From an uncultured Gammaproteobacteria bacterium (lineage in GTDB: Bacteria; Patescibacteriota; Microgenomatia; CAZETR01; Amesbacteraceae): a stretch of DNA of 64,000 nt. Below are positions 16,870 through 38,040 of the stretch, one piece after another. The notes below the pieces were generated by a model, which searched no databases, had not been told where the DNA came from, and saw only the letters and a program-made list of their open reading frames with translations. The position numbers were made by a program, and so were the translations under genes. The stretch is from the NCBI GenBank assembly GCA_964518565.1, contig CAZFGX010000001.1:267046-331045 (forward strand). The letters run 5' to 3'. How positions within the stretch are numbered: the first letter of the stretch is position 1; the number at the start of each line of letters is the position of its first letter.

Positions 16870-17874
16870 TTAGTACTTTCCCGGATCAATTCGAATTCCT
16901 AGACAAAAAAGAATCAATTCTTTTAAAATGATAATAGATAATAATAGGCAAGCAGGCAAATGCCAAAATACTACTTTATCCCTATATATCTTATAAAGAA
17001 GAAGGCTATCAATCAGGGGAAAAATAATACTAAAAGAGTAAATAGGGAATAAGTATTGCCTAATTTTTCTTGAGGGGTTCAAATACCTCTGTCTATAAAC
17101 CAACCCCATCCCTTTCACTGATTGGTTTAAATTGTTTCGAATTCTCCAAGTATATTTATGAATAAATTGAGAAATGTCTTTAACATGGTAATGAAAGATA
17201 CCGCAACGAGGTACATGTGCTATAAACCCCCCTTCTGAAATTAATTTTATCCCAGACAATATGTCATCATTTTTCCCCATTGATTCCCTTTTAAAACTAG
17301 AAACTGTCCCAAACCCTTGAGAGAGTCCGAGTAAACCATAATTTTGAGATGTAAATTTGTAGATACTATATGCTGACGTTGATTTAACCGGTTTATACAT
17401 GTCTCCATATGTCCGTGGAACAGATGCCCAACGATAAATAAACCAGGTGAACGGATCTGTAGCCAAGTAACCCATATACCTGTCAAATGAATTCCAATCA
17501 TCAGGTGGAATAGTTTGCGGCAAAAAACCTTTCACGTATGGATTTTCAATATAGGGCTGTACCATATCTGTGATCCAGGTTCTAGATGACAAAATATTGT
17601 CTGCATCAGTAAAAAAAAATATCTCCCCTTTAGCTTTTTCTGAGGCCAATGCCTTGCCAGGTTCGTGTAATACTTCAGTATTATGGATAACCCGTGCGTT
17701 GTATTTTTTTGCTATTTTAATTGTAGAGTCAGTCGAACCTCCATCAGCAACAATAATTTCAACTTTGTTTCTCGGATAATTTTGATCTCGTATGGCTTTT
17801 AAACAACGTTCCAATATCCACGATGCATTTAGTGTTGGAATAATAAATGAAACCGATGGTGTTTGTCTAATCAT
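16870..17874 (-). CDS. GT2 family glycosyltransferase with C-terminal membrane segments.
   Basis: VSFIIPTLNAS, IIVADGGSTDST and FTDADN (DXD) motifs, with C-terminal hydrophobic helices. Confidence 0.8.
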   Translation of the reverse strand: MIRQTPSVSFIIPTLNASWILERCLKAIRDQNYPRNKVEIIVADGGSTDSTIKIAKKYNARVIHNTEVLHEPGKALASEKAKGEIFFFTDADNILSSRTWITDMVQPYIENPYVKGFLPQTIPPDDWNSFDRYMGYLATDPFTWFIYRWASVPRTYGDMYKPVKSTSAYSIYKFTSQNYGLLGLSQGFGTVSSFKRESMGKNDDILSGIKLISEGGFIAHVPRCGIFHYHVKDISQFIHKYTWRIRNNLNQSVKGMGLVYRQRYLNPSRKIRQYLFPIYSFSIIFPLIDSLLLYKIYRDKVVFWHLPACLLLSIIILKELILFCLGIRIDPGKY

Positions 17875-17900: not shown

Positions 17901-19982
17901 ATGAGTTTAAAAATAAAAAAGTATCAGGGGATTCTTTGCATTATAAGCATAATAATAGTTAGTGTTTGGTTCGGAGAAAAAAAAATACTAGCTACTGCCG
18001 AGGAAGGAATACCGTATTACAACCCGATTCGCACTTTAAATCTTTTCTCCTCAAATTTTTACGATACAGGATTGGGTTATGATGGCGCCTATAATATTTC
18101 ACGGATACCGTTAGCGTGGTTAAACGCCGTACTATCTACAACAAGATTAGATACCTGGAAAATTCAAGCAATCGTGTTCTTTTTTCTTATTTTGACACCT
18201 CTTTTGTGCTTACAAAAATTAGCTATATACATTAATGACAATCCCGATGTTGGATTATTTGCAGCAATATTTTATTTATGCAACCTATTCGTTATGTCTC
18301 AAATATGGAACAGGTTTGTGTCATCGTTAATTTTTCTCTGGTCGTACCTGCCTATTTTTTTATTAATTTGGATTACATTACTAAAAACAAAAAAAATTAA
18401 ATATATATTTATCCTTTCGCTATCTTCCATAGTCTATTCGAACATGTTTATAACAATCTCACCTCTTATAACAATTTGGTTTTGTGGAGGAATATATTTT
18501 CTTTTTAATATTTATCAATCAAAAAAGAAAAAAAAAGATATTATTATAGGGTTTTTGTGTGGAGCAATTTTCTTGATATGTAATCTTTGGTGGATAATTC
18601 CAGTATTTTCATTGCAGAAAAATAGTACAGGGTCAAATTTAAATACAAAATCAAATATTCAAACTGTGAACGATGTAAGTAAATACTTTGATAACACAAA
18701 CATACTTACATTAACTCAAAAATATATGTTTGGTCCAAAAAGTCCATATCAAATTTTTTACTTACGCTCAAGCATAAAGCTTGTTTCGGTAATGGTGATA
18801 GGTATATTAACAATAGGTATATATTGCGCAGCTAGAGAAAAGAAAGCGAGGTGGATTTTATGTATGTTATTTTTTGGCTGGTTTATATCTAAGGGAGTGA
18901 ATCCACCATTAGGAAAAGAATTTTACAATTTTATTTTCGCTAATGTGCCATTCACGCAGGTTTATAGAAATCCCTACGAAAAATTTGGGGTTGTTTTTGT
19001 CTTGGCGTACTCATTGTTGTTTGCAATTGGATTAACGAAACTATTCGACACGACAAGTACGGTTAAAAAATATATTCTTATATTAACAGTGATTATTGTG
19101 AACGGGTATTTAGTAAGTCCAATTTGGCAAGGTACACTGTTTTCTTCAAGTAATTACGTTACTGTTCCAGAGGATTATAAAAAAATAAACGAAATAATTA
19201 ATAACGGTTCAAATGATCAAAATCGCATTTTCATGTTACCATTTTTGCACGGCTCTGAGATCAAATATACATGGGGATATTCGGGGGAGGAGGCTTCAGA
19301 ATTTTTGTTTGATCATTCATCTATATCAAGAATTTTTTCAAACCCTGAAGTAGATGAATTTTACTACCAACTTGGAAAATCAAATCTTTTTAGACAAAAT
19401 AAGAATTTTAACAAAATACTTACGACTGCTTTAGTTGATACAATTATTATCCATAAAGATATTGTCAAATCAACTTATCATCAAGAAAGTTATGAAGATA
19501 CGTTAAAGATTGTAGAAAATTGGAATGGATCTGAAAAAATAGCAGAAAATTCTACATTTAGTGTCTATAGAATTTCAGGTAAAAAAATCGCAACCCGTGC
19601 TTATATTGTAGACAAATTATATTTTGTTAATAATATAGAGGAATATTTTAATGAAGCTACAAAAAATGAATTTGATCCTACGACTGATGCAGGAATAATT
19701 CTATCTCAAAACAAATCAACCCCAATGGGTATAGGACTCTCATATAGTACTCCTGATTATCAGGTTATATCAGTCTCTAAAACAAAATATATGCTAAAAA
19801 TTAATCAGGCTCAAGGACCATTTGTGGTTATTTTGTCCAACAACTACAGTCCATATTGGAAATTATTTGTCAATGAAAACGAAAATTTAAACAAATTAAA
19901 AGTTAATGGTTTCGCAAATGGCTGGATAGTTGAGCAAAAAGGTAGTTATAATATTGATATAATTTATTCACTATGGAATTAA
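17901..19982 (+). CDS. Large polytopic membrane protein, paralog A of a four-member family. Putative GT-C-like glycosyltransferase.
   Basis: 693 aa, with an N-terminal multi-helix membrane domain and a C-terminal soluble domain. Shares KGxNPPLG...YRNPYEKF and C-terminal NYSPYWKL...NGFANGW motifs with ORFs 23622, 25520 and 28541. Confidence 0.5.
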   Translation: MSLKIKKYQGILCIISIIIVSVWFGEKKILATAEEGIPYYNPIRTLNLFSSNFYDTGLGYDGAYNISRIPLAWLNAVLSTTRLDTWKIQAIVFFFLILTPLLCLQKLAIYINDNPDVGLFAAIFYLCNLFVMSQIWNRFVSSLIFLWSYLPIFLLIWITLLKTKKIKYIFILSLSSIVYSNMFITISPLITIWFCGGIYFLFNIYQSKKKKKDIIIGFLCGAIFLICNLWWIIPVFSLQKNSTGSNLNTKSNIQTVNDVSKYFDNTNILTLTQKYMFGPKSPYQIFYLRSSIKLVSVMVIGILTIGIYCAAREKKARWILCMLFFGWFISKGVNPPLGKEFYNFIFANVPFTQVYRNPYEKFGVVFVLAYSLLFAIGLTKLFDTTSTVKKYILILTVIIVNGYLVSPIWQGTLFSSSNYVTVPEDYKKINEIINNGSNDQNRIFMLPFLHGSEIKYTWGYSGEEASEFLFDHSSISRIFSNPEVDEFYYQLGKSNLFRQNKNFNKILTTALVDTIIIHKDIVKSTYHQESYEDTLKIVENWNGSEKIAENSTFSVYRISGKKIATRAYIVDKLYFVNNIEEYFNEATKNEFDPTTDAGIILSQNKSTPMGIGLSYSTPDYQVISVSKTKYMLKINQAQGPFVVILSNNYSPYWKLFVNENENLNKLKVNGFANGWIVEQKGSYNIDIIYSLWN

Positions 19983-20800
19983 AATTAAAGGAACTTCTTG
20001 AAAATACAGGAGATATGGCTCTTAAAAGAAGAGCTCTAAATATCCTAAATTATTTAAATCCAAGAGTTGGAGACAGAGTCATAGATATTGGCTGTGGAGA
20101 CGGATATTATCTACATTTATTATCGAATTTAAAAATTAAAAATTTATCACTTTTTGGCACAGATTACGACCCGAGAGGATTAAAAAAGGCTGAAAAAAAT
20201 TTAAATCCCAACATTCCAATTTTAGAAGGCGATTTAATGAAAAAGTTACCCTTTGCAGACAGCTCATTTGATAAAGCCGTAATGTCTGAGGTTGCCGAAC
20301 ATTTACCAAACGATATTGTTGGATTAACTGAAGTGGCTAGAATTTTGAAAAAAAATGGGACGATTTGTTTGACAGTTCCTCATCAAAACTACCCATTTTT
20401 TTGGGATCCTTTAAATTGGTTAATCGAGCATATGACAGGTAGTCATATCAAATCTGGTTTTTTTGCCGGGATATGGAATCAGCATGAACGTTTGTATACT
20501 CCAGAGCAAATTAGACAGGTAATGGAAAAGAGTGGCTTTGTAGTGGAAGAAGTAAAGTCCTTAACGTGTTGGAGTCTACCTTTCAATCACTACATCATAA
20601 ATCTTGTTGCTAGATATTTGCATCAGCAATATCTTAAGGGACAATCAAATAAATCATTAAATAAATTTTCTACAAATTTCAAGCGATCGCCAATTTTAAA
20701 TTTAGCATTCTGGCTAGTAAACAAGATCGATAAATTAAACGATATATGGCAAATTCCTGAGACTGGGGTATCAGTTTTTGTATTGGCCCATAAAAAATGA
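19973..20800 (+). CDS. Class I SAM-dependent methyltransferase.
   Basis: VIDIGCGDGYY motif I, plus acidic motif II (LFGTDYD) and motif III. Confidence 0.75.
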   Translation: MELKLKELLENTGDMALKRRALNILNYLNPRVGDRVIDIGCGDGYYLHLLSNLKIKNLSLFGTDYDPRGLKKAEKNLNPNIPILEGDLMKKLPFADSSFDKAVMSEVAEHLPNDIVGLTEVARILKKNGTICLTVPHQNYPFFWDPLNWLIEHMTGSHIKSGFFAGIWNQHERLYTPEQIRQVMEKSGFVVEEVKSLTCWSLPFNHYIINLVARYLHQQYLKGQSNKSLNKFSTNFKRSPILNLAFWLVNKIDKLNDIWQIPETGVSVFVLAHKK

Positions 20801-21948
20801 GATTTATATTTTGGTCAATGGCCTCGCAGGGTGAAGGAATATCGGGTGGAGATAGAATATATATTGAATTTGCAAAAAATTGGTCTAAAAATTTCGAGAT
20901 AGATATTATAACTTGGAAAGAAGGTATAAATATGATGAAAAGAAATGATTTGCTTCCGAACAGAAAAATTCATATCCATACTTTAAATAACAATAAACAT
21001 ATGGAATATATACCTAGAATTATTCATTCAATAAAGTATGCAATAAATTTAAAACTAGATCCAACAGAAAAGATCTTTGTTTATATGTCGTCTGAATTTT
21101 GGATGGATTGCTTTGGGGGTGTGATTGTTAAATATAGATATCCTCAAATTTCACTAGTTGCCACATGGTATCAAACTGCCCCAAATCCCTTGAATGGATT
21201 TGGAAAGAACAGGTATAGATTCAAATCTATACCCTATTGGTTTGTGCAACAAATATCCAAACCCCTTATTAGAAAATATGCTGACATAGTTTTTGTAAAT
21301 AACGATTTAGAAAAAAAAGAATTTTTAGAAAAAAAAACTATATCAGTTTTAGGTGCAGTAAATATACCAAAAATAATTAGTGAAAAAAAAATGAAACCAT
21401 CTATTAAAAAATATGAGGCAGTTTTCCAAGGCAGATTTCACCCTCAAAAAGGAGTAGAAGAGTTAATTGATATTTGGTCAAGGGTAGTAAAAAGAATGCC
21501 AAACGCAAGGTTGTGCATGATAGGGGATGGGGAATTGAAAACAAGCGTAGTAAAAAAAATAAGGGAAAAAAAACTAGAAAATAACATAGAATTAAAAGGG
21601 TATGTTTTTGACGGTGATAAGAAAAATCAACTATTCTCGCAGAGTAAGTTAGTCTTACATCCTGCATATTACGATAGTGGAGGTATGGCCTCAGCAGAAG
21701 CAATGATTTTTGGATTGCCGTGTATCGCATTTGATCTACCTGCCTATGATATGTATTATCCAGTTGGAATGATAAAGATACCCACAGGTAATTTAGATGA
21801 GTTTGCAAATAAAGTATATGAATTACTAATGGATAAAAAAATAAGAAATAGAATTGGCAGACAGGGTGCTGAATATATTAAAAAACATTCCACATGGAAA
21901 ATTCGTTCAGAAGAGATATTAAAAAAAATGACTAACAATGAAGACTAA
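20797..21948 (+). CDS. GT4 glycosyltransferase.
   Basis: C-terminal SGGMASAEAMIFGLPCIAFD EX7E-like motif. ATGA overlap with the upstream gene. Confidence 0.7.
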   Translation: MRFIFWSMASQGEGISGGDRIYIEFAKNWSKNFEIDIITWKEGINMMKRNDLLPNRKIHIHTLNNNKHMEYIPRIIHSIKYAINLKLDPTEKIFVYMSSEFWMDCFGGVIVKYRYPQISLVATWYQTAPNPLNGFGKNRYRFKSIPYWFVQQISKPLIRKYADIVFVNNDLEKKEFLEKKTISVLGAVNIPKIISEKKMKPSIKKYEAVFQGRFHPQKGVEELIDIWSRVVKRMPNARLCMIGDGELKTSVVKKIREKKLENNIELKGYVFDGDKKNQLFSQSKLVLHPAYYDSGGMASAEAMIFGLPCIAFDLPAYDMYYPVGMIKIPTGNLDEFANKVYELLMDKKIRNRIGRQGAEYIKKHSTWKIRSEEILKKMTNNED

Positions 21949-22963
21949 ATTAGTTACTGTAATAATAGTTAATTTCAACGGAAAAGAGTGGTTGAAAGGG
22001 TTGTTACCAAACTTAACAAATCAAACATACAAAAATATTCAAATAATTATTGTAGACAATAACTCTTCCGACGAATCAACTAACTATGTCACAACATGTT
22101 ATAAAAGTATAAAGCTGATTTCTTGTAAAAAAAATGAAGGATTTGCTGCGGGGAACAATATGGGTATCGAAAAAGCAGATGGAGAATATATCATTTTGTT
22201 GAATAATGACACATGGGTACCGAAAGATTACGTAGAAAATTTTATTAGAGTGTTTGATAAATATCCAAACTGCGGGATTGCACAGTCAAAAATATTATTT
22301 ATGAATGAGTCAAAAAAAATAGATAGTTGCGGTTCATTTCTGACATCATGGGGGTTTCAATATTATATTGGCAACAATAAGTCATCAAACCTTAAGAAAT
22401 ATAACAAACCATTTAAAATATTTTCCGTTAAAGGGGCTTCGATGATATTTAAAAAATCAATTTTAATTAAAATAGATATGTTTAACACTGATTATTGGAG
22501 CTATTATGAAGAAACTGATCTTTGTCACCGTGCCCTTATGCAAAACTATGAAATAATGTATTGGCCTGAAACATATATATTACATGCTATTGGTGGAACA
22601 TCAACAAAATTTCCGAATAAAAAAATTCAATTTCATAATTATAAAAATAAAATGAATAGTCTAATCACAAATTTAGAAACATACACTTTATTCAAAATAC
22701 TACCAAAGTTTATTTTTCTAAATATTTTGATTAGTTTTGTTTGGATTTTAAGAGGTCAGTTTGGCAATTCGATGTCAATATATAAAGCATTTTTTTGGAT
22801 ATTAAATAATTTAAGAAAAATTTATTTACAACGTATTCGTATTCAATCAAATCGGAAGGTTAATGATGGAACACTATTTAAAGAATATATGAAATTTCCG
22901 TCAATTAAATACTATTATTATTTATTAAATAATAATTTAAATAAATATTCGGATCAAATATGA
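21938..22963 (+). CDS. GT2 family glycosyltransferase.
   Basis: VTVIIVNFNG, IIIVDNNSSDES and LNNDT (DXD) motifs, and a C-terminal TM segment. Confidence 0.8.
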   Translation: MKTKLVTVIIVNFNGKEWLKGLLPNLTNQTYKNIQIIIVDNNSSDESTNYVTTCYKSIKLISCKKNEGFAAGNNMGIEKADGEYIILLNNDTWVPKDYVENFIRVFDKYPNCGIAQSKILFMNESKKIDSCGSFLTSWGFQYYIGNNKSSNLKKYNKPFKIFSVKGASMIFKKSILIKIDMFNTDYWSYYEETDLCHRALMQNYEIMYWPETYILHAIGGTSTKFPNKKIQFHNYKNKMNSLITNLETYTLFKILPKFIFLNILISFVWILRGQFGNSMSIYKAFFWILNNLRKIYLQRIRIQSNRKVNDGTLFKEYMKFPSIKYYYYLLNNNLNKYSDQI

Positions 22964-23646
22964 AAAAATATAATATAAACTATTATAAAAGACATGTAAA
23001 AGGCCATTTAGAAATATTGTATTTAAAAATAATTTTTACATTAAGAAGGAAAGAAATCGAAAAATTTCTTTCTAATAAAACAAAAAAATTGATATTAGAT
23101 ATTGGATGCGGAGACGGAGGATTTTTATCAGTATTTAATAATCATGAATATGAGATTATGGGAATCGATCATTATTTGCCCAAGATAAATCAGAATTTTA
23201 AGACAATTAGAGGAGATTTTGCAAAATATAAATTTAATCAAAAATTTGACATAATAACTGCAAACCATGTAATTGAGCATGTCGATGATTCTAATAAATT
23301 TATTCGAAAAGTCTCAAATATAATAAAACCCGGAGGAATATTTGCAATTTCAACTCCTAATAGAAATAGCTTCGGCTCGCGAATTGGAAAAAAAGATTGG
23401 TATCATGCTGATACTAAATTTCACAAACATATATACACTCAAGCCGAACTTATTTCAGTTTTATGTTCAAACGGTTTTGTAATTCTTGAATCTCATGGTG
23501 AATTTCCAGGGTTTCCATTTGATATTTATCGCACATATCTTAAAAAGGGTATTTTGTGGATTTTTACATTGCCGCTATTTCAGATATTAAAATTTATTAA
23601 TCCAGAGACGTTCGTAATAATATGCAAAAAGCAATACGATTACTAA
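22960..23646 (+). CDS. Class I SAM-dependent methyltransferase.
   Basis: ILDIGCGDGGF motif I. ATGA overlap with the upstream gene. Confidence 0.75.
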   Translation: MKKYNINYYKRHVKGHLEILYLKIIFTLRRKEIEKFLSNKTKKLILDIGCGDGGFLSVFNNHEYEIMGIDHYLPKINQNFKTIRGDFAKYKFNQKFDIITANHVIEHVDDSNKFIRKVSNIIKPGGIFAISTPNRNSFGSRIGKKDWYHADTKFHKHIYTQAELISVLCSNGFVILESHGEFPGFPFDIYRTYLKKGILWIFTLPLFQILKFINPETFVIICKKQYDY

Positions 23647-25538
23647 TACCAGTCATCCTTTTAATATGCCCGCTTTTATTGTGGGGGAATAGATTTATAG
23701 TAGGGGGGGATGATTCTAAACTTTACTATGCATACCCAGAACTATATATAAAGAACTTTGCGTTAAATTTAGAGCAGAACAATACTTTATCAGGTGCCCA
23801 AACTGGTTATCAGCCTTTATCATATTTTATTCCCCTTTTGCTGGCAATTAAGTTTTTAAAATTTATACCTATTCTAAATCCTCAAATGATTCTATATGGA
23901 ATTAACCTATCTTTAGGATATTTAGGATTTTTGTCATTTCTGAAACAGTTAACTAAAAAATATCCACCAATAACATCAGGGCTACTATATATAACATCAT
24001 CTTTGCTAGGGCAAACTCTGTATGCACATCAATTACCATCAATTTATCTTGTTGGTACATGTCCGTGGATATTATTTTTTTTGTTAAAGTCAGTTGAATA
24101 TAACAAAAAACATTTTGCAATAATTTCAGCTGCCATTGCTTCTGTCGGAAGTAGTACGCTACTAACCCTGCCTTGGTCTATGGCGTTTATTGTAGGTTCA
24201 CTACCGCTGTTTATTTGGATGTTGGCTAAATATAAATTAATTTTATGTAAACATATCACAGTTTTTGTTTTTTCATTTTTGGTAATTAATACTTATTGGA
24301 TTGCTCCATATATTGATTCACAAATTTTTTCAAAAAAAAACGCTTTAATTAATTCATATTCCGGACAAAGTTTTATTAATGAAAATGTCAGAATAGTAGC
24401 TGGCGTTAGTAATTTATACCAACCAATAAATATTTTCTCTCAACAATTACAGCCGACATCTTCATACCTTTTAAAATTTATATTATCGGCCAGTGTATGT
24501 AGCATATTGATAATAAAAGGAATAAAAAAAAACAATTCAAAATTGGTATACATCTCATTTTTAGCTTTAATTTTAAATTTATTTTTAATTTCTCCAGGAG
24601 TGAGTTCATATGGAGTAAAAATATTCATTTGGTTAACAAAAAATATTCCATTTTGGGGTATGTTCAGAAATATGTATGATAAATTTTCTTTACCACTTAG
24701 TTTTTGGTTTGCAACATGTGCAGGAATTGCTATTCAATTTACAACAAACAAACTTAAAAAAGTATTTTTGACTATTTTATCCTGTCTGTCTGTACTATTT
24801 TCAATTAAGGACTATATACCTAATTTAAAGTTAATGAATGGATCGCGTGCATATTTCACTGGAAATTTCAGTTCTGACTTTGTTGATTTAGTAAGTTATT
24901 TATCTAAAAAAAATGATGGTAGAGTTATGTGGCTTCCTTTAAACTATCCGGCGTATTCATCAATTCAAGATAGCCAAGGAAATATATACTACGGTCCATC
25001 CCCTTTAAGAGAAATGGCAAATATTGATGACTTCACAGGAAGATTTAGTTTTCTTACATCAAATAACGTTGATTGGGGTAATAGGATAATTTCAGACATC
25101 CTTAAAAAAGATTATTCTTCATTAAAATCAGCAATTAATTTATTAAATATTAAGTACATTATTATTAATAATTTGGAGTTGAACAAAGAAATGTCGGAGT
25201 TTTTTTATGGTGGGGTAGAACAACAAATACTTTCAGCGCAGAATGGTGACTATATACAAAATATAGTAGGAGAAAAAATTACATCATTTGGAAATTTTGA
25301 TGTATATAAAGTATCAAAAGAAATCGAAAATAAAAATCCAAATTTTGTTTCCATTGCCTACTCTTCACACTGGATAAGTAGTAAATCAGGTGAACAGCTC
25401 TTACCGAGAAAAACATTCGGTATGATTTCAGAAAACAAAGATATCAAATTCAAATTGCCTGTTGTTATACCGTTCATTACGATCATATCCTTATTACTAT
25501 TTATACCTGGGTTTGTAATATGCTACCAAAAAAAATAG
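23622..25538 (+). CDS. Large polytopic membrane protein, paralog B. Putative GT-C-like glycosyltransferase.
   Basis: 638 aa and multi-helix. Shares the FRNMYDKFSLPL motif with paralog C. Confidence 0.5.
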   Translation: MQKAIRLLIPVILLICPLLLWGNRFIVGGDDSKLYYAYPELYIKNFALNLEQNNTLSGAQTGYQPLSYFIPLLLAIKFLKFIPILNPQMILYGINLSLGYLGFLSFLKQLTKKYPPITSGLLYITSSLLGQTLYAHQLPSIYLVGTCPWILFFLLKSVEYNKKHFAIISAAIASVGSSTLLTLPWSMAFIVGSLPLFIWMLAKYKLILCKHITVFVFSFLVINTYWIAPYIDSQIFSKKNALINSYSGQSFINENVRIVAGVSNLYQPINIFSQQLQPTSSYLLKFILSASVCSILIIKGIKKNNSKLVYISFLALILNLFLISPGVSSYGVKIFIWLTKNIPFWGMFRNMYDKFSLPLSFWFATCAGIAIQFTTNKLKKVFLTILSCLSVLFSIKDYIPNLKLMNGSRAYFTGNFSSDFVDLVSYLSKKNDGRVMWLPLNYPAYSSIQDSQGNIYYGPSPLREMANIDDFTGRFSFLTSNNVDWGNRIISDILKKDYSSLKSAINLLNIKYIIINNLELNKEMSEFFYGGVEQQILSAQNGDYIQNIVGEKITSFGNFDVYKVSKEIENKNPNFVSIAYSSHWISSKSGEQLLPRKTFGMISENKDIKFKLPVVIPFITIISLLLFIPGFVICYQKK

Positions 25539-28402
25539 CGTTTATAGGGGTTATTTTTCTGTACTCCTTGGTAATAAATTTGTCTATATACAATCCTGGT
25601 ATTTTTATCCTATCAAGACATATACTGTCATATCGTGAATCAAAAATTATTAACATACAGAAATATGAATCAGGTATAGAATTTTCTTTACCGGTATCAA
25701 GACCTTATTTGGGAATCATAGAGTTAGAGGTTCCGAAGGTTAAAGATCCAAATAGTGAAATAATTTTCACCTTTGAAAACGAAGATAAATCAATTTTAGC
25801 TCAGTCAAAATTTCAATATTTTCAAATAAAAGATACAAATCCGTACCCGTTAGGTATTCCGGTTAAAAATAACTCTGAAAATAAAAAACTCACGATTAAA
25901 ATTTCCTTTAACACTGTTCAAAATGGGGGTTACGACAAAAATCAAATTCAAACTTCTTTAACATATATCTATCCCAAATCGATACTTTTACATCCTAAAT
26001 ATTTACTAGACACGATAAAAACGAATTTTGAAATTATATTCCCTTCAAGCGGTTCGGTTGCTTTATTAATTGTAAGCGCAATTGTTGCGGTTTATATCGC
26101 AGTTTACGGATCAAAACATAGTGATATATTGCCAATTGTAGTACTAGTAGCCGTTGGAATTTGTTCTGTCTTAAAAGAAAAAAATATAGCTGATAAATTA
26201 TTGATATATTTTTATATTTCAATAATTGCTTCAATATCGTTAAAAATTTTTAAAGAATTTATTAATAAATACAAAATTAAATCAGCAAATAAATCGGTAA
26301 TTATATCAACTATTACAATATTTATTGTGCTAATTTCATTTAGTTCGTGGTATTTTTTAGGGGGTGATGAAACAAGAATTTATTATTTATATCCAGAAAA
26401 ATATTTGTCAAATTATGTATCAAACATTATTGAAAATACAACCCCAAGCAATATTTCAATGTATGTTCCAGTAAATGCGCTTAGACTATTCGTTTTGTGC
26501 ATTAAAATTCAAAAATTTATTTTACCGTTTGTTAACACACAAATATTTTTATTTTGCATAAACTTGCTAATAGCGTTAATTGCATTCTACAAAATGTGTA
26601 GTTTGTACATCAAACGCTCGTCTTATAGCATGATATTGTGTGGTTCAGGGGCATTTTTATATGTTTTTTCTATATTTAATGCATATACAATATTTAATTC
26701 CCAAAACTATTCGCAATATTTACTATCAATTTTTCCAGTCACGTTTATTCTTCTACGAAAATTTTTAGACACAAAAAAATATATTTATATCGGAATAATT
26801 ACAGCAATATATTTTATTATTCCGATATACCCACTGATTCCAATATTAGGGGCATTAATAATTGGATTTTTACCAGTGTTTATTCAGTGGATATATTTGT
26901 ATAAAAAAACTTTCTTCACTACAGTATTTTTACTGTCAATAACGATAACTGCTACAAATATTCACTGGTTGGGCCATTTAATAATTCAGCAAACAAATAG
27001 AAATTTAATTCAAACGAACAATACAATCTTCAATATAGGAGACAAAAAGCAGAACAGCGACGCTATAATTTCAACATCCAAACAGTTAAACCCTATCTAT
27101 CCATTTTTACATTTATATCCATATGATGTACAAAAAAATTTAAACTGGCCACAATTATCGGTATATGAATCGTGGTACTTAAATATAGCTCCATTTAATT
27201 TCATATTTATAGTAATAATACTTGTAGGTTTATACGAAAATATACGCCTAAGAAAAAATCTGAGCATCTATATCTCATTTGTTTTTGTGATCTTTTATTT
27301 TTGTGGAAATCTTGGATTTATCAAACCAAACTTTTTTGCAGGTCTTGTTACTAGTCATACTGTTTTGCTGATGTTTAGAAATATGTATGACAAGTTTGCC
27401 CTCCCTTTGGCTTTAATCTATGCATTATGTTTGACTATTTCATTGGATGTTATTCTGAGGAAATATTCAAGTATTCAGATTCAAAAAACCATAATATGTA
27501 CTATTTGTATCCTTATTTTCTTGAATATTTTTCCTGTTATTGATGGAAGGTTCCAATCTTTGCCAATATGGGGTACTTCATCATCGTATTCATACATATC
27601 AAAATTTAATCGAGACTACATAAATTTGGCAAAAGAAGTCGAATCCCTACCTTTAAAAACAAAAATAATCACTCTACCTTTAAGTGAAGGTAATTTAGCA
27701 GTAATTGATGATGATTTTGTTAAAAAGCATTATTACGTTGGAGTCTCCCCAATGCTAATTCTGTCAGGAAAAAATGATGTATCCGGTTTTTTAAGTTTTG
27801 GAGTTAATAAAAACCTGGCTGAAAATCTTATTGAGTCAAAACAATTCAAAGAGTTCGGATATTTGCTTAAACAGCTAGGGATTACTCATATAGTAATGTT
27901 CAATAACCTTCCCAAAGAAATTAAATATAGCAATATTTTTACTCCTAAACATTTGTCATCAACAGACATGTTGTTTAATACATTAGTGGGCAAAAAAATT
28001 AAATCATTTGGAAATCGTTACTCATTATATGAGATAAAAGATGAATTTAAAGGCAGTTTTTTTACTGTAGACGGTAACCCAGTTGAATTTAATCAAATTG
28101 CAAAATCCAAATATTTATTAGAGGTGCCAATTACTTCAAAATCAGTAAAACTATCAGAATATATAAACCCATTTTGGACACTTGAAATAGATAAAAAAAG
28201 ACTTAGGCCAGAAGCAGATAATACATTTGGTATGAATTGGACCCTGCCTACATCAATAAAAAATAAAACTATAGTGGTGAATTTTTTACCTCAAATGAGC
28301 GTTCTTCCATTTTGGATGATGTCTTTCGTTGGCTGGATAACTATAATCATCATATATATTTATTATGAAAAAAAATATAAAAAAAACCGTACCACTAATT
28401 GA
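25520..28402 (+). CDS. Large polytopic membrane protein, paralog C. Putative GT-C-like glycosyltransferase.
   Basis: 960 aa. FRNMYDKFALPL motif and C-terminal YINPFWTLE motif, matching the other paralogs. Confidence 0.5.
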   Translation: MLPKKIAFIGVIFLYSLVINLSIYNPGIFILSRHILSYRESKIINIQKYESGIEFSLPVSRPYLGIIELEVPKVKDPNSEIIFTFENEDKSILAQSKFQYFQIKDTNPYPLGIPVKNNSENKKLTIKISFNTVQNGGYDKNQIQTSLTYIYPKSILLHPKYLLDTIKTNFEIIFPSSGSVALLIVSAIVAVYIAVYGSKHSDILPIVVLVAVGICSVLKEKNIADKLLIYFYISIIASISLKIFKEFINKYKIKSANKSVIISTITIFIVLISFSSWYFLGGDETRIYYLYPEKYLSNYVSNIIENTTPSNISMYVPVNALRLFVLCIKIQKFILPFVNTQIFLFCINLLIALIAFYKMCSLYIKRSSYSMILCGSGAFLYVFSIFNAYTIFNSQNYSQYLLSIFPVTFILLRKFLDTKKYIYIGIITAIYFIIPIYPLIPILGALIIGFLPVFIQWIYLYKKTFFTTVFLLSITITATNIHWLGHLIIQQTNRNLIQTNNTIFNIGDKKQNSDAIISTSKQLNPIYPFLHLYPYDVQKNLNWPQLSVYESWYLNIAPFNFIFIVIILVGLYENIRLRKNLSIYISFVFVIFYFCGNLGFIKPNFFAGLVTSHTVLLMFRNMYDKFALPLALIYALCLTISLDVILRKYSSIQIQKTIICTICILIFLNIFPVIDGRFQSLPIWGTSSSYSYISKFNRDYINLAKEVESLPLKTKIITLPLSEGNLAVIDDDFVKKHYYVGVSPMLILSGKNDVSGFLSFGVNKNLAENLIESKQFKEFGYLLKQLGITHIVMFNNLPKEIKYSNIFTPKHLSSTDMLFNTLVGKKIKSFGNRYSLYEIKDEFKGSFFTVDGNPVEFNQIAKSKYLLEVPITSKSVKLSEYINPFWTLEIDKKRLRPEADNTFGMNWTLPTSIKNKTIVVNFLPQMSVLPFWMMSFVGWITIIIIYIYYEKKYKKNRTTN

Positions 28403-28540
28403 ATATATATGTTTTGTTATCTGTCTATGTGGTTTGGTATTAGCAACAAACTTTAAAAAAAACTACACAATATATTTTGAATTTTTAATTATTGCATGCC
28501 TTGTCATTCTATTAGTCAGATATAGAAAAAAATAATAAAT

Positions 28541-31069
28541 ATGTTTGGCGCTCACGATTTGCCATATTTATACCCCGAGCAGGTAAAATCTTTTTTCCAA
28601 TTACCCATGATCTGGTCAGAAAAAAATCATGAGGCATTTGGTTTATACAATGTATCCATTTTATGGAATTGGCCAATTGAGTTTTTGTATGGATTGGGTG
28701 GCCGTATAGGAATTGACTATAATTTATTAATAATTCTATTTGGTTTGTTACCCTTTGTTGTATTCGGTTCAACGGGTCTTTATAGATTATTATCAGAATA
28801 TAAACTTAGTAAAAAAACTATAACAGTTACGATTATATTTTTTTTGCTAAATCCATTTACTCTATTGTTAATCGATGGCGGCCAATTAAACTTAGCAGTT
28901 GCATATGCACTTTTGCCATTAGCATTTAGTTATAGAAAAAATCTTAAAAATTTCTTGTGGACTTGTGTTGCAATTTCCATCTTTGATTTAAGAATCATTC
29001 TTTTTCTTGAGATGTTGCTCGGCGCAAGAGCTATTTTATCACCGTCAGAAATTAAACCAATTTTTAAAAATGTATTTTTATCTTTAATAGTTCTATTCAT
29101 CTGTCATTTATACTGGATACTGCCTGCAGCTATTGTTAAGTTACCCTCCCTTCCCGAGTCATATACTGAATCTTCACAAATCGACACATTAAGTTTTGCA
29201 AAGTTATCTGATTCAATAATCTTTTACCAACCACATTGGCCAAAAAATATTTTTGGTCAATTGACGACTCCTGCAATTGGTCTGATTGTTTTGCCTGTCA
29301 TAGTTTTTTTTGCTCTATTAACAAAAAAAGATAATAACGCTATATCTTATTGGTGTTTCGTTTCAATACTTGGAGTTTTTTTATCAAAAGGCTCAAATCC
29401 TCCACTAATAAATATTTATAAATACTTATTCATAAATATTCCCGGGTTTAATTTATTCAGGGATCCAATTAAGTTTTATATGTTTATTGGATTAGGTTAT
29501 TCAATACTTTTAGCTTTTTCAATTGAGTATATACAACAAAGAAAAAATAAAATTTTCTACTTCCTTGTTGTAATGTATTTATTATTTATATGTGCACCTA
29601 TTATTAAAAATGAATTTACGGGTTTGTTATCGTTGCCACGAAGCATGCAGGGTTATATCTCACTAGCAAATAGTTTGAGCAAATCCTCTCCAGGAAAAAT
29701 AGTATGGATACCCTCTAAGCCTTCTATTGGATATTCAGATGTCAAACACCCTTCGTCTGACGCACTTACCTTTTTAGATAAGCAACCGATAGAGGTAAAT
29801 ATAAAAGGCACGTACGAAACATTAAACTATTTAAGAGAGCCAACAGAAATTGGAAAAGTTTTCCCTGCAATAGGTATTAAATACTTAGCCATAAGTGCAA
29901 TTGACTCGAAAAGAGATAGTACCAAGCCAGAAGATATAAGATATCACCAGTTTTTAATAAATGAAATTATAAAGAATGATTGGACCGAAAAATCTGAATT
30001 ATTTAATGATGTAAATCTTATTCAAGTCAAAACACCTGAAGATTTTTTTTCATTAAAAAGTCAAGTTATTTTTGTAAGTGGATCTCAATATATCTATAAA
30101 TCATTCTCTAGTCTAAAACATACAGGTATAGTTTTTACTGATTTAATACCAGAACTGTCGTTACGGTTAGCAGAATACCCTAGTGCTATCATGTCACATG
30201 AGCATGGCTCAATATCTAATAAAATATCTGGATATATACCTTCTAAAAATTTAATTAAATTAACAGATTTACTAAACGAAACTCCAGATAAAACTGGATG
30301 GTGGAAAAGAAATTCGTCTGAGATTGTTTGGTGGAGGGATTTTCTAAAAAATAAATATAATATTGAAAACTCCGACTTTGATCCAAACCAAGGATGGTCA
30401 ATCTCAGAAGGCGCTCATAAATTAGATTTTAAAACCAAAAATTGTTCGGATTGTTATCTATTTATAAAGGTTTTACAAAGTACTGCCGGTGGTGATATTA
30501 AAATTTATCAAAACAATAAAGAACTAATTAAGCTAAATACAAAAGATGACTCAAACTCCTTTAATTGGTTTAATGTTAGACTAGAATCTGACAAAGATAA
30601 AATAACTCTATCTACTGATGGTGACTTAAATGTCGTAAATACTATAGCAACAATCTCTCAAACACAATTAACTAATTTTAGTGAATATTACCAATCTGCC
30701 ACTATAAATAGTCGAAAAATTTCTCCTCAGACATCTCAGATAAAACTTTTATCAAAGAAAATAAATCCTACATTGTATAAAATAAAAATATCCGGTATTA
30801 AAAATCCCATTATGTTGACCATGTCTCAAAACTATGATTCAAATTGGAGACTATCAGGTCAAAAATCGCTACCTGTTTATGGATTAATTAATGGATTTTC
30901 AATTACAAAAGATGGCGAGTATACTATCGAGTATTATCCTCAAAAATATGTGTATTCAGGGCTAATTATTAGTTTAGTTACCGGAATAATGGTTAGTTCA
31001 CTTAAATTATTTAGAACCTTATGGAAAAGAAAAACTACGATAATTACTTCAAAAAGCATTACAAACTGA
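28541..31069 (+). CDS. Large polytopic membrane protein, paralog D. Putative GT-C-like glycosyltransferase.
   Basis: 842 aa. KGSNPPLIN...FRDPIKF motif and C-terminal NYDSNWRLSG...INGFS motif. Preceded by the only sizeable intergenic gap (28403..28540) in this part of the locus. Confidence 0.5.
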   Translation: MFGAHDLPYLYPEQVKSFFQLPMIWSEKNHEAFGLYNVSILWNWPIEFLYGLGGRIGIDYNLLIILFGLLPFVVFGSTGLYRLLSEYKLSKKTITVTIIFFLLNPFTLLLIDGGQLNLAVAYALLPLAFSYRKNLKNFLWTCVAISIFDLRIILFLEMLLGARAILSPSEIKPIFKNVFLSLIVLFICHLYWILPAAIVKLPSLPESYTESSQIDTLSFAKLSDSIIFYQPHWPKNIFGQLTTPAIGLIVLPVIVFFALLTKKDNNAISYWCFVSILGVFLSKGSNPPLINIYKYLFINIPGFNLFRDPIKFYMFIGLGYSILLAFSIEYIQQRKNKIFYFLVVMYLLFICAPIIKNEFTGLLSLPRSMQGYISLANSLSKSSPGKIVWIPSKPSIGYSDVKHPSSDALTFLDKQPIEVNIKGTYETLNYLREPTEIGKVFPAIGIKYLAISAIDSKRDSTKPEDIRYHQFLINEIIKNDWTEKSELFNDVNLIQVKTPEDFFSLKSQVIFVSGSQYIYKSFSSLKHTGIVFTDLIPELSLRLAEYPSAIMSHEHGSISNKISGYIPSKNLIKLTDLLNETPDKTGWWKRNSSEIVWWRDFLKNKYNIENSDFDPNQGWSISEGAHKLDFKTKNCSDCYLFIKVLQSTAGGDIKIYQNNKELIKLNTKDDSNSFNWFNVRLESDKDKITLSTDGDLNVVNTIATISQTQLTNFSEYYQSATINSRKISPQTSQIKLLSKKINPTLYKIKISGIKNPIMLTMSQNYDSNWRLSGQKSLPVYGLINGFSITKDGEYTIEYYPQKYVYSGLIISLVTGIMVSSLKLFRTLWKRKTTIITSKSITN

Positions 31070-31686
31070 CATTTTCTCCTCAGGATCTAAAAAAGTCGTC
31101 AAATTGGCTTTATCCCCAATGGTCATTTATATCAAAAAAAGTCTCATTAAGCGACAAAACTCATATTCTGGAAATAGGTTCTGGATATGGCGGTTTTCTA
31201 AATTATTTATTGCCACATATTGATAAAAACAAATATGTAGGGCTAGATTTAGATTCACAGGTTGTAAAATTTACAAATAAAACATTTGACATGAGATCGT
31301 GTAAAAATACTTCGATTGAAGAGTTTAATACAAACAAAAAATTTGATTATATTTTTGCATTTGAAGTGCTCGAACATGTTGAAAATCCCTTAGAAGTTAT
31401 AAAAAAAATCCATAAATTGCTAAAACCTGAGACTGGGATATTTATTGGAACAAGTCCATACCCCTATACGAAAAATGTAATTGCTGACAAAACACATATG
31501 CATGTTTTGCATCCCAAAACTTGGGAAAAATTTTTTCTACTATCAAAATTTACATCAGTGGATACATATCCTATGACATTTATTCCATATTTATGGCGTA
31601 TATCTAAATTTTTAAACCCCCGTATTCCAATATATCTTCCTCAAAAACACATCATATCTACATCGCTTATAATAGCCAAAGTATGA
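31021..31686 (+). CDS. Class I SAM-dependent methyltransferase.
   Basis: ILEIGSGYGGF motif I and downstream FAFEVLEHV motif. Confidence 0.7.
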   Translation: MEKKNYDNYFKKHYKLTFSPQDLKKSSNWLYPQWSFISKKVSLSDKTHILEIGSGYGGFLNYLLPHIDKNKYVGLDLDSQVVKFTNKTFDMRSCKNTSIEEFNTNKKFDYIFAFEVLEHVENPLEVIKKIHKLLKPETGIFIGTSPYPYTKNVIADKTHMHVLHPKTWEKFFLLSKFTSVDTYPMTFIPYLWRISKFLNPRIPIYLPQKHIISTSLIIAKV

Positions 31687-32954
31687 AAATTGCTATTATT
31701 GGCGCAGGATTCACAGGGCTAGCTGCAGCACATCAATTAGGTAAAGATCACAATATTACAGTATTTGAAAAAAACTTAAACCCTGGTGGACTGGCACAGG
31801 GTTTTAAACAGTCTAATTGGGACTGGAGTTTAGAAGATCATTATCATCATATTTTTACTTCAGACAAAAATATTTATGATTTAGCTTTGAAAGTTAGACA
31901 TCCAATAGACTTTTATCAGCCAAAAACCAGCACATGGATAGATAACCATATATATCAACTTGATTCCGTGGCTTCTCTAATGAGATTTACTCCCTTATCA
32001 ATGATCTCTAGAATCAGAACCGGAATAGGTATGGCATCTTTAAAATTAAATCCATTTTGGAAACCTTATGAATATTTTACTGCCAAAAAGATGATTCAAT
32101 CCATGATGGGCAATGAATCTTGGGAAAAACTTTGGTCACCACTTTTTTTTGGTAAATTCCACTCATATGCCGAACAAATATCAGCCGCATGGTTTTGGTC
32201 CAGGATATATAAAAGAAGCCAGTCGTTAGGATATCCCCGTAAAGGATTTTTATCATTGGCTAAAACTATTGAATCAAATATTATATCCAATAAGGCAAAA
32301 TTTATTTATGGTACAACAGTCGAAAGAATTAAGTCAGTAAAGGGTGGAATAGAAATAAGAGCAGATGGCAAAAGCCAAATATTTGACCGAGTGGTCTGTA
32401 CATTACCTACAGCATATTTTTGTAAAATAACACCAGAGATCGAAGCAGATTTTGTACGAAAATACACAAAAATTGAGGGTTTGGGAGCTATAAATTTAAT
32501 TCTGTCTTTAAAAAATAATTTCTTCTCGGATGGAACCTACTGGTTAAACATCAACGATAAAAAAATACCCTTCCTTGCCGTAGTTGAACATACCAATTTT
32601 ATCTCTGAAAAATTTTATCATAATGAACATTTAATTTATGTAGGGTTATATGCTCCATCCTCTGATCAACGATTTAGCTATTCAGAAAAAGAACTTCTTT
32701 CATTGTATTTACCACATTTACAAAAAATTAACCCGAATTTTTCTGAAAAACAAATTAATAATATTTGGCTTAAAAAAGCAGCCTTTGCCCAACCTATAAT
32801 CCCTATACACTATTCTAAAAGCATCCCACCCATACGTACCTCAATGAAAAATGTATTTCTAGCAAATATGCAACAAGTATATCCCTGGGACAGGGGAACC
32901 AATTATGCAGTAAAATTAGGAATGGAGGTAGCCAAAGAATGCACCACAAATTAA
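31683..32954 (+). CDS. FAD/NAD(P)-binding oxidoreductase (amine-oxidase / protoporphyrinogen-oxidase / UDP-galactopyranose-mutase-like superfamily).
   Basis: KIAIIGAGFTGLAAAH...VFEKNLNPGG dinucleotide-binding fingerprint at the N-terminus. ATGA overlap with the upstream gene. Confidence 0.65.
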   Translation: MKIAIIGAGFTGLAAAHQLGKDHNITVFEKNLNPGGLAQGFKQSNWDWSLEDHYHHIFTSDKNIYDLALKVRHPIDFYQPKTSTWIDNHIYQLDSVASLMRFTPLSMISRIRTGIGMASLKLNPFWKPYEYFTAKKMIQSMMGNESWEKLWSPLFFGKFHSYAEQISAAWFWSRIYKRSQSLGYPRKGFLSLAKTIESNIISNKAKFIYGTTVERIKSVKGGIEIRADGKSQIFDRVVCTLPTAYFCKITPEIEADFVRKYTKIEGLGAINLILSLKNNFFSDGTYWLNINDKKIPFLAVVEHTNFISEKFYHNEHLIYVGLYAPSSDQRFSYSEKELLSLYLPHLQKINPNFSEKQINNIWLKKAAFAQPIIPIHYSKSIPPIRTSMKNVFLANMQQVYPWDRGTNYAVKLGMEVAKECTTN

Positions 32955-35990: not shown

Positions 35991-36685
35991 TTGTAGTTAG
36001 TTACAACGAGGCTACAAAGCTAGAAAAGTGCTTAGAGTCAGCGGTAAAAAAAGTAGATGAAATAGTATTGGTTGATATGGGCTCAACAGACAATTCGATA
36101 AATATTGCTAAATCTTTTAATGCTGAAGTATTTACCCACACTCATGTACAAGTAGTCGAACAAATAAGAAATTTTGCAATTTCGAAAGCGAAGAACGACT
36201 GGGTACTAGTATTAGATCCTGATGAGCAAATTACTGAAAATCTAATAAAAGTGCTCAAAGAAACGGTTCAAAATAAAAGCATATCTGCAGTAAATATTCC
36301 AAGAAAAAATATTTTTTTTAACAAATGGATTCGTCACTCAAATTTCTGGCCTGACCATCAGATAAGATTCTTCAAAAAACAGTCGATAGTCTGGGATGAA
36401 AAAATTCACTCCTACCCGAAAATTTCAGGAGAAATAGTCAAACTTGATGAAAATCCAGAGAATGCAATAATTCATTACGGATACGACTCGATTGAAAATT
36501 TTATTACCAGACTTAATCGTTATACTTCAAAAGAAAAAAATTCAAAAAATCCAATTATAGAGTTTGGCAAAAGGTATTTCTGGCACGCAGGATTTCTTGA
36601 TGGCATGCATGGATTAGTTGTGTGTACACTTATGTGTATATATTATATTTCGGTTTGGGTAAAAATATGGGAAAAGAAAAAATAA
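35972..36685 (+). CDS. GT2 family glycosyltransferase.
   Basis: ISLVVVSYNE, LVDMGSTDNS and LDPDE (DXD) motifs. I chose the start at the ATG at 35972 (MPKISLVVV). Confidence 0.75.
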   Translation: MPKISLVVVSYNEATKLEKCLESAVKKVDEIVLVDMGSTDNSINIAKSFNAEVFTHTHVQVVEQIRNFAISKAKNDWVLVLDPDEQITENLIKVLKETVQNKSISAVNIPRKNIFFNKWIRHSNFWPDHQIRFFKKQSIVWDEKIHSYPKISGEIVKLDENPENAIIHYGYDSIENFITRLNRYTSKEKNSKNPIIEFGKRYFWHAGFLDGMHGLVVCTLMCIYYISVWVKIWEKKK

Positions 36686-38037: not shown

Positions 38038-38040
38038 GCA

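Follow-up and report, generated by a model that had tools for sequence, protein, structure and literature searches.

Four probable compact AftD-like GT-C glycosyltransferases in a methyltransferase-rich glycan cluster of a Microgenomates bacterium

Introduction

AftD, the cell-wall arabinofuranosyltransferase D of Mycobacterium, is a polytopic GT-C glycosyltransferase of about 1400 amino acids (aa). It uses a decaprenyl-phospho-arabinose donor and carries three carbohydrate-binding modules (CBMs) and, at its C terminus, a bundle of five helices to which acyl carrier protein binds. Five of its residues (K39, D41, E251, K361 and D474) were found to be essential, and its homologues have been reported in Actinobacteria only (bioRxiv 10.1101/2019.12.22.885152). 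Here, four related membrane proteins, named A to D, are described from a bacterium of the candidate phyla radiation. They are encoded, together with three class I S-adenosylmethionine (SAM) methyltransferases, at positions 17901–31686 of a 64,000-nucleotide stretch of DNA (GenBank assembly GCA_964518565.1, contig CAZFGX010000001.1, positions 267,046 to 331,045), referred to below as the window. Profile searches, predicted folds and conserved residues indicate that A to D are probably compact and distant members of the AftD-like GT-C family.

Two other described systems provide points of comparison. MmpA (NCgl2761/Rv0226c) is an AftD-like polytopic protein of roughly 470–540 aa that lacks sandwich modules and is homologous to the N-terminal domain of AftD. 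It is genetically linked to, and functionally dependent on, the class I methyltransferase MtrP, and it acts with this putative methyltransferase and an acyltransferase in lipid export in Corynebacterineae, where its role lies in trehalose-mycolate acetylation and export (PMC8698533). In the GtrA/GtrB/GtrC systems, exemplified by the GT136 enzyme ORF12 of Citrobacter youngae, a cytoplasmic partner loads polyprenyl phosphate, and a single GT-C enzyme with a C-terminal CBM-like domain modifies the finished or growing glycan outside the cytoplasm (PMC11127046). In the literature searched, nothing was found on GT-C enzymes in Patescibacteria or on the subfamilies to which A to D belong.

Sequence similarity among the four proteins

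The four genes lie on the forward strand at 17901–19982 (A, 693 aa), 23622–25538 (B, 638 aa), 25520–28402 (C, 960 aa) and 28541–31069 (D, 842 aa). The original prediction, made from the sequence alone, had given these positions and the range of 638–960 aa exactly, and had described the products as tandem, giant paralogues, each paired with a small methyltransferase. At 640–960 aa the proteins are large rather than giant, and the tandem arrangement holds for B, C and D but not for A, which is set apart from the others by a methyltransferase, a family 4 glycosyltransferase (GT4), a family 2 glycosyltransferase (GT2) and a second methyltransferase. The possibility that B, C and D are pieces of one gene was ruled out by the full motif set present in each.

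The loop motif predicted for all four proteins was located in every one of them. It reads KGVNPPLG (331–338) and YRNPYEKF (355–362) in A, FRNMYDKF in B (348–355) and C (619–626), and KGSNPPL (283–289) and FRDPIKF (306–312) in D. The C-terminal motif that had been proposed for three of the four was likewise found in A (NNYSPYWKL, 647–655), C (INPFWTL, 882–888) and D (QNYDSNWRL, 763–771), while B retains only a degenerate YSSHW together with a shortened C-terminal module.

Identity among the copies is low, at 14–26%. Pairwise BLASTP with SEG filtering and composition correction nevertheless connected B with C (E = 5e-24), A with D (5e-11), B with D (1.5e-7), A with B (8e-6) and A with C (2e-3); the C–D pair gave no match under the same settings. 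Profile–profile comparison with hhalign extended these links over most of the protein length, aligning the A family with the D family over 633 columns (E = 7.8e-49) and the B family with the A family over 669 columns (E = 6.9e-54), and C scored 461 bits on the B-family hidden Markov model. The similarity is therefore significant and exceeds what chance and hydrophobic composition would give. Judged by sequence, the four proteins are representatives of three old subfamilies, namely A, B together with C, and D.

AftD as the nearest characterized relative

Evidence for an AftD relationship was obtained at three levels, from domain libraries, from family profiles and from predicted folds. Against Pfam family PF11847 (GT-C_AftD, formerly DUF3367), protein A scored 29.4 bits, above the cutoff of 26, whereas B, C and D showed no match to it at E ≤ 0.1 and matched no other Pfam family. 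The same pattern is seen in their relatives: PF11847 was matched by one of 40 B-family members (E = 5e-4), and the annotation is absent from D-family members. None of A to D matched YfhO (PF09586) at E ≤ 0.1, and the other Pfam GT-C families likewise gave no match. Of the candidate families named in the original prediction, the AftD-like one is thus retained and YfhO falls away. In NCBIfam, D matched the MmpA model NF053599 with 36.9 bits (E = 1.6e-9) over a region spanning KGxNPP to FRDPIKF, B reached 12.5 bits, and A and C did not match; the family cutoff of 210 bits is well above all of these scores.

Single A and D sequences searched with phmmer against the PDB retrieved nothing, and family profiles were needed. 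The A-family profile reached the AftD cryo-EM structures (6W98, 6WBX) at E = 2e-8 and the B-family profile at E = 4.7e-7. A profile built from 62 sequences of all subfamilies reached AftD at E = 3.9e-23, aligning residues 41–546, which comprise the whole GT-C super-domain, and residues 1199–1279, which comprise the last sandwich and a transmembrane (TM) helix. The D-family profile alone found no relative in the PDB, and D is tied in through its hhalign match to the A family.

Predicted structures are consistent with these alignments. AlphaFold2 models of A and D each had a pLDDT (predicted local distance difference test) of 89.7, with pTM (predicted template-modelling score) values of 0.88 and 0.87, respectively. 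In Foldseek searches of the PDB, AftD was the top match for both A (1.5e-14) and D (2e-10). It was followed for A by PglB, STT3, DPY19, AftA and ArnT, and for D by CBM-type beta-sandwiches. The models show a GT-C class A fold, with a TM core and a periplasmic alpha/beta domain, to which AftD is nearest. The oligosaccharyltransferases PglB, AglB and STT3, which share the GT-C class A fold, score below AftD (6W98, 6WBX, 6WBY) and are not matched by the sequence profiles, and no WWDxG motif is among the conserved columns. A transporter fold was ruled out by TM-scores of about 0.1 against the major facilitator superfamily, with poor E-values.

These results bear out the assignment to a GT-C-like transferase family, with AftD nearest by both profile and Foldseek comparison. 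The two findings that would have spoken against it were similarity confined to hydrophobic segments and a transporter fold; the similarity proved to be significant, and the predicted fold is of GT-C type, not a transporter's. On present sequence evidence, A belongs to the AftD family at the level of Pfam, and B/C and D are remote subfamilies without annotation, with reduced architecture and outside Actinobacteria.

Domain architecture and active-site residues

Compared with AftD, the four proteins are about half as long and carry one or two sandwiches in place of three CBMs, and none or one C-terminal TM helix in place of the five-helix bundle, so that the full AftD architecture is found in none of them. 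Protein A combines a polytopic GT-C core at its N terminus with a periplasmic alpha/beta domain and, C-terminally, a single beta-sandwich; no TM helix is present at its C terminus. In B the C-terminal beta-sandwich is reduced and the protein ends in one TM helix. C also has one C-terminal TM helix and is extended by about 270 N-terminal residues (25520–26330), made up of a TM helix, an extracytoplasmic stretch of about 140 aa rich in beta structure, and more TM helices ahead of the GT-C core. A similar extension occurs in one homologue of C (P0102), and extensions of about 320 aa without a Pfam match occur in some B-family members. D has the larger soluble part, with two CBM-like beta-sandwich modules and one long C-terminal TM helix.

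D and its closest orthologues start at the acidic motif of the first external loop without the preceding first TM helix (TM1), which is present in remoter family members. Immediately upstream of D lies a 56-aa open reading frame (ORF) with two hydrophobic helices (28365–28535, forward strand) that ends 5 nt before the D start codon. It is called as a gene in the copy of this locus held in a Logan assembly, and an ORF of the same size stands in the same place in the closest relative, locus L108 (3356–3526), with no detectable sequence identity to that of the window. Given that D and its near orthologues lack TM1, the 56-aa protein might supply this helix in trans, which is at present a guess.

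Features shared with AftD include the acid after TM1, an RNxxxK loop whose Lys is among the essential residues of AftD, and CBM-like sandwiches past the catalytic domain. An acidic motif directly after TM1 occurs in every subfamily (AEEG 33–36 in A, GGDD 28–31 in B, GGDE 281–284 in C and AHD 4–6 in D), and in the sequence alignment the conserved acid falls near D41 of AftD. A helix end with the pattern N..W(W)..P is also conserved in the all-subfamily alignment. In the loop KGxNPPxG...(F/Y)R(N/D)xx(D/E)KF, the Lys is invariant and the Arg nearly invariant in 62 sequences; the FRNxYxKF part pairs with LRNVHK of AftD in the profile alignment, and its Lys corresponds to K361. For these assignments the AftD chain numbering is that of the publication plus 3, as confirmed on the TKLD segment holding K39 and D41. 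The D474/E475-P476 segment of AftD aligns with G-x-E-P-S in the A family, the only family in which the acid is kept. The acid of the first external loop and the basic residues presumed to bind phosphate are kept everywhere, while two acids specific to AftD are not; on balance the alignments favour catalytic competence of A to D.

Organization of the gene array

From A onwards, the genes follow the order A, M1, GT4c, GT2c, M2, B, C, the 56-aa ORF, D, M3, an oxidoreductase and Wzx, all on the forward strand. Neighbouring ORFs overlap by 4–49 nt or nearly abut from A to past position 34198, and the whole can therefore be regarded as one operon-like array. The methyltransferases M1 (19973–20800, 275 aa), M2 (22960–23646, 228 aa) and M3 (31021–31686, 221 aa) overlap the end of A by 10 nt, the start of B by 25 nt and the end of D by 49 nt, respectively. 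Between M1 and M2 lie GT4c (20797–21948), a cytoplasmic GT-B enzyme of family 4 (Pfam Glycos_transf_1, E = 4e-25), and GT2c (21938–22963), a family 2 enzyme with one C-terminal hydrophobic helix (Glycos_transf_2, E = 9e-26) that overlaps M2 by 4 nt.

Identification of M1 to M3 as class I methyltransferases was confirmed by Pfam at E = 1e-17 to 1e-24 and by an intact motif I. Matches to the families Methyltransf_11/12/23/25/31 had E-values of 1e-10 to 1e-24 (Methyltransf_11/23/25/31 for M1, Methyltransf_23 at E = 4.5e-24 for M2, and Methyltransf_12/23/11 for M3), and motif I reads DIGCGDG in M1 (38–44) and M2 (47–53) and EIGSGYG in M3 (51–57). The nearest PDB matches of M1 are generic and include RebM-type and D-glucose O-methyltransferases, while for M2 and M3 the closest is UbiG, an enzyme whose isoprenoid substrates are bound to the membrane.

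Upstream of A and divergent from it lies GT2b (16870–17874, reverse strand), a family 2 glycosyltransferase (Glycos_transf_2). Its TM helices at 275–293 and 309–327 give it a GtrB-like topology, which makes it, by sequence, a candidate polyprenyl-phosphate-sugar synthase. A GT2b-like gene is found just upstream of an A-family gene in about 10 related loci, scoring 527 bits in locus L003 and 58–140 bits in the others. At the other end, the array continues with a flavin adenine dinucleotide (FAD)-dependent oxidoreductase of the PRK07233 family (31683–32954, forward strand; NCBIfam NF005560, 398 bits against a cutoff of 252; Pfam Amino_oxidase) and a Wzx-type MOP flippase (32939–34198, forward strand; Pfam Polysacc_synt and an NCBIfam MOP flippase model). 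The oxidoreductase is wedged between M3 and Wzx here, and a homologue stands directly after D in three metagenome loci.

Relatives and conserved gene order

Orthologues of each subfamily were found in other Microgenomates at 33–45% identity. Exact copies of the window proteins occur on a 1,001,365-bp NCBI contig and in the Logan assembly, and the best locus among the GTDB representatives scanned is 41% identical. For A, about 100 homologues were detected, at up to 41% identity; most are annotated with PF11847, and those that are named belong to Microgenomates, Woesebacteria and Patescibacteria. The B family comprises 397 representatives of 50%-identity clusters at E ≤ 1e-3. Beside the exact match, word-index searches returned two homologues for C, the rarest of the four, and 69 for D, at up to 44% identity; relatives of the D family come from 365 metagenome sites, many of them groundwater. 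None of the named relatives bears a functional name.

Gene order is also shared with other genomes. The order GT2a–GT4a–epimerases–GT4b–GT2b–A–M1–GT4c–GT2c–M2–B–M3 is kept in other Microgenomates. In L003, from a member of the Levyibacteriota, a 564-aa membrane protein (reverse strand) is followed by GT2a, GT4a, epimerases 2 and 3, GT4b and GT2b (reverse strand), and then by A, a methyltransferase, M1, GT4c, a GT2a-like GT2, an epimerase-like ORF, GT2c, M2, B and M3, which nearly matches the window; L002, L005, L006 and L009 are similar. A GT4c orthologue is present in 20 of 26 A-centred loci at 340–440 bits (125 bits in L025), and M1 orthologues score 300–400 bits in many related loci. In the closest relative, L108, B is followed by C, the 56-aa ORF, D and lastly a methyltransferase. 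In the D family the conserved neighbours are Wzx and then a GT2d-type GT2; of 80 metagenome loci, 68 show a gene downstream of D, and in 42 of these the gene directly downstream is Wzx.

The original prediction had read the array as a lineage-specific expansion. This was not upheld, as the copies are only 14–26% identical to one another, orthologues elsewhere are closer, and the gene order is common to other genomes. A recent tandem duplication is likewise ruled out by the low identity between copies and the closer orthologues in other genomes.

Many GTDB representative contigs among these loci (L002, L004, L007, L008, L012–L014, L017–L020 and L022) are titled "uncultured Gammaproteobacteria bacterium". 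On contigs that carry a cluster of Microgenomates type, such titles look like placeholders or mislabels.

Methyltransferase neighbours and fusions

Related loci are rich in methyltransferases. They account for 61 of 456 ORFs in A-centred genome loci (window included) and for 86 of 627 ORFs in 80 D-centred metagenome loci, that is, for 13–14% of the genes across 106 related loci. In typical bacterial genomes, class I methyltransferases make up only a few percent of the genes.

Whether they belong with the GT-C genes depends on the family. In A-centred loci, a methyltransferase adjoins 24 of 46 GT-C genes against 15.2 ± 3.0 expected, an enrichment that was reached in 16 of 5000 within-locus shuffles. 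In D-centred loci, a methyltransferase adjoins D in 7 of 80 cases against 16.7 expected, which is a depletion; the D-then-methyltransferase order is kept in L108 and is rare across the D family. The proposed one-to-one pairing is local rather than general: it holds for A, B and D in the window and is enriched in the A family, but C has no methyltransferase beside it and the D family is depleted. A strict pairing of GT-C and methyltransferase genes is ruled out for the D family. Elsewhere the order M2 then B recurs in L002, L003, L006 and L009, and in many loci M1 adjoins GT4a, not A.

Gene fusions point to other partners. Fusions of a GT2c-type domain with a methyltransferase domain, in both orders, occur in 13 or more related loci, a few of which may repeat because their contigs are duplicates, and in most the methyltransferase part matches M2 best. 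L018 encodes a GT4a-type domain joined to an orthologue of M1 (300 bits). Sites of such methyltransferase–glycosyltransferase fusions include L018 5720–7720, L008 18419–20266, L017 14152–15708 and L042 1061–3037. A GT2c-like domain is, in addition, joined N-terminally to an A-type GT-C domain in P0033 and P0057, and at L008 8900–11899, in a protein of about 1000 aa; the GT2 part of P0033 and P0057 is closest to GT2c among the window proteins (E = 1e-29 to 1e-34). The idea that each methyltransferase is the functional partner of a GT-C protein thus gives way to fusions that join methyltransferases to GT2c- and GT4a-type enzymes instead. Together with the GT2c-then-M2 order in the window, which is that of most fusions, they lead us to read the methyltransferases as partners of cytoplasmic transferases. 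Adjacency to GT-C genes would then be a by-product of the tight packing of the operon, and GT2c would form the connection to the GT-C step.

The surrounding glycan cluster

The array forms part of a single glycan supercluster that extends from position 6 to 53085 of the window, about 50 kb or about 5% of a genome of about 1 Mb. Apart from the genes described above, it contains several nicotinamide adenine dinucleotide (NAD)-dependent epimerases/dehydratases, two nucleotidyltransferases, one hexapeptide acyltransferase and more than 20 GT2 and GT4 genes in all. Downstream features include a Wzy_C protein (42525–43829), a PMT_2-type GT-C protein (43775–45259), one of the nucleotidyltransferases, which is ManC-like (49358–50455), a Bac_transf initiating transferase (50456–51106) and a DUF4012 protein (51103–53085). 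The cluster is followed by RecO (53085–53630). Scans of the 64-kb window for tRNA genes and Rfam families returned nothing.

Four polytopic or large ORFs of the supercluster have no Pfam or NCBIfam family and may be further glycan-assembly proteins. Three are polytopic (10052–11746, reverse strand; 36622–38037 and 38041–39312, forward strand) and one is large (583–2451, forward strand). The first, of 564 aa, is syntenic with the A-type cluster in many Microgenomates loci, and the ORFs at 36622–39312 recur downstream of D-family clusters. One of the family 4 glycosyltransferases is divided between two overlapping forward-strand ORFs, with a Glyco_transf_4 half at 47279–47812 and a Glycos_transf_1 half at 47809–48312, which could represent a frameshift, a pseudogene or a true split gene.

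Proposed function and alternative explanations

By type the system is a known one, an extracytoplasmic GT-C step within a conventional lipid-linked glycan pathway. A to D probably carry out extracytoplasmic glycosyl transfer from polyprenyl-phosphate donors to a surface glycan that is itself probably O-methylated; activity, donor, acceptor and methylation are inferred from what is established for AftD, Emb, ArnT, PglB and Gtr-type systems. Under this proposal, the Bac_transf enzyme would initiate synthesis, and GT2 and GT4 enzymes would build lipid-linked intermediates at the cytoplasmic face and also load polyprenyl phosphate with sugars, with GT2b and GT2c as candidate donor synthases. The class I methyltransferases would O-methylate sugars on the cytoplasmic side together with GT2c- and GT4a-type transferases, so that the surface sugars are plausibly O-methylated, and the Wzx flippase would carry the intermediates out. 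On the external side of the membrane, each GT-C paralogue would then take a sugar from its polyprenyl-phosphate carrier and add it to the growing glycan. The acid of the first external loop and the conserved Arg/Lys loop would form the active site, and the C-terminal beta-sandwich modules would hold the acceptor glycan in the manner of the AftD CBMs. The paralogues may differ in the linkage that they form or in the sugar that they add. Nothing points to an arabinofuranose donor, since the window ORFs that were scanned with Pfam include no gene of UbiA or DprE type; genes for the synthesis of the AftD donor were not seen in the window.

Several described systems share parts of this scheme. The fusions between GT2c-like and GT-C domains in relatives of the window suit the logic of the Gtr-type systems, and GT2b has a GtrB-like topology. 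Those systems employ one modifying enzyme, whereas four AftD-like paralogues and a PMT_2 GT-C protein are present here. WsaE is a methyltransferase–rhamnosyltransferase of Geobacillus S-layer glycan synthesis, and WbdD-type proteins are terminators. As in the GT2c–methyltransferase fusions, the methyltransferase of these proteins is fused or adjacent to GT2-type enzymes acting on lipid-linked glycan on the cytoplasmic side, and GT2c gives a weak match to the rhamnosyltransferase model TIGR01556. No ABC transporter or coiled-coil ruler was seen here, where the pathway has a Wzx flippase.

A number of observations weigh against transfer by A to D. The position of AftD E251 is not conserved in the combined profile, and at the D474/E475 position B and C have Y-x-G-x-S-P and D has R-P-F, with no acid; residues were mapped to AftD by sequence alignment, not by structural superposition. 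None of the GT2 enzymes of the window scored above noise against the specific ArnC, GtrB and PpgS models, and no small flippase of GtrA size was detected, nor does the tightly packed operon leave room for one. Furthermore, a role for AftD itself as partner of the acyltransferase TmaT has been put forward in recent preprints, and MmpA, which is AftD-like, is without demonstrated transferase activity (PMC8698533).

This last point leads to the possibility that A to D are non-catalytic scaffolds or transport accessories like MmpA, with methyltransferase neighbours that reflect an ancient module of AftD-like protein, methyltransferase and GT4. The single NCBIfam match of D is to MmpA, whose dependence on MtrP offers a parallel; A-type protein, class I methyltransferase and GT4 are linked in many loci, a gene content that recurs as methyltransferase, glycosyltransferase and AftD-like genes in the mycobacterial Rv0224c–Rv0226c locus, and conservation is lost in B/C and D at two positions of the AftD active site. 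The match nevertheless lies far under the family cutoff, A to D are larger than MmpA and have sandwiches, and the pathway that MmpA serves is absent here. Strict conservation of the acid in the first external loop and of the Arg/Lys loop speaks for catalysis, and CBM-like sandwiches and dense sugar-nucleotide and glycosyltransferase surroundings suit glycan synthesis. The ORFs scanned include no acyltransferase_3 or MmpL-type gene, none of M1 to M3 matched an MtrP model specifically, and the fusion partners of the methyltransferases are GT2 and GT4 domains rather than AftD-like proteins. A purely accessory role therefore appears improbable. Slightly less improbable, yet still unlikely, is that some paralogues, D above all, are oligosaccharyltransferases, ligases or polymerases rather than single-sugar transferases, and act by en-bloc transfer or polymerisation of flipped lipid-linked oligosaccharides onto protein (S-layer, pili), peptidoglycan or a lipid anchor. 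Wzx frequently follows D, and with a Bac_transf initiating enzyme and Wzx in the cluster, flipped undecaprenyl-diphosphate-linked units are to be expected. However, by every measure the closest relative is AftD, a single-sugar transferase with a monophosphate donor, the Wzy_C protein of the window could serve as ligase or polymerase, and no WWDxG-type motif was seen in conserved columns or in aligned motif windows.

Two further explanations concern the methyltransferases. According to the original prediction, a recent lineage-specific tandem expansion would have provided each GT-C protein with its own methyltransferase, each pair adding its own methylated sugar. The overlap or abutment of M1, M2 and M3 with A, B and D, the enriched adjacency in A-centred loci and the recurrent M2-then-B order accord with dedicated pairs. 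The recent-expansion part is already contradicted by the divergence of the copies relative to their orthologues, C is without a methyltransferase, the D family is depleted, M1 stands by GT4a in many loci, and fusions join methyltransferases to GT2c and GT4a; taken as a whole, the explanation is very unlikely. It is also conceivable that AftD-like GT-C proteins, GT2c-type enzymes and membrane-peripheral methyltransferases form one conserved and hitherto undescribed Microgenomates module that loads, methylates, flips and transfers polyprenyl-linked sugars into an O-methylated surface polymer, and that the linkage of AftD-like protein, methyltransferase and GT4 is ancestral to the mycobacterial locus MmpA–MtrP–Rv0225. 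We hold this reading as a whole to be rather unlikely; if it were true, an essential and mechanistically unexplained mycobacterial envelope module would gain an origin in glycosylation.

Significance

Altogether, the comparison gives a family and a probable job to proteins that are mostly blank in the domain libraries searched, and it extends the AftD branch, in a widespread and compact form, to bacteria of the candidate phyla radiation. There remains a connection, open to testing, of the methyltransferases with GT2c-type transferases and AftD-like GT-C enzymes. A genome of about 1 Mb that gives some 5% of its length to a single methyltransferase-rich surface-glycan cluster makes this cluster relevant to the question of how episymbiotic cells build the surface with which they contact their hosts.

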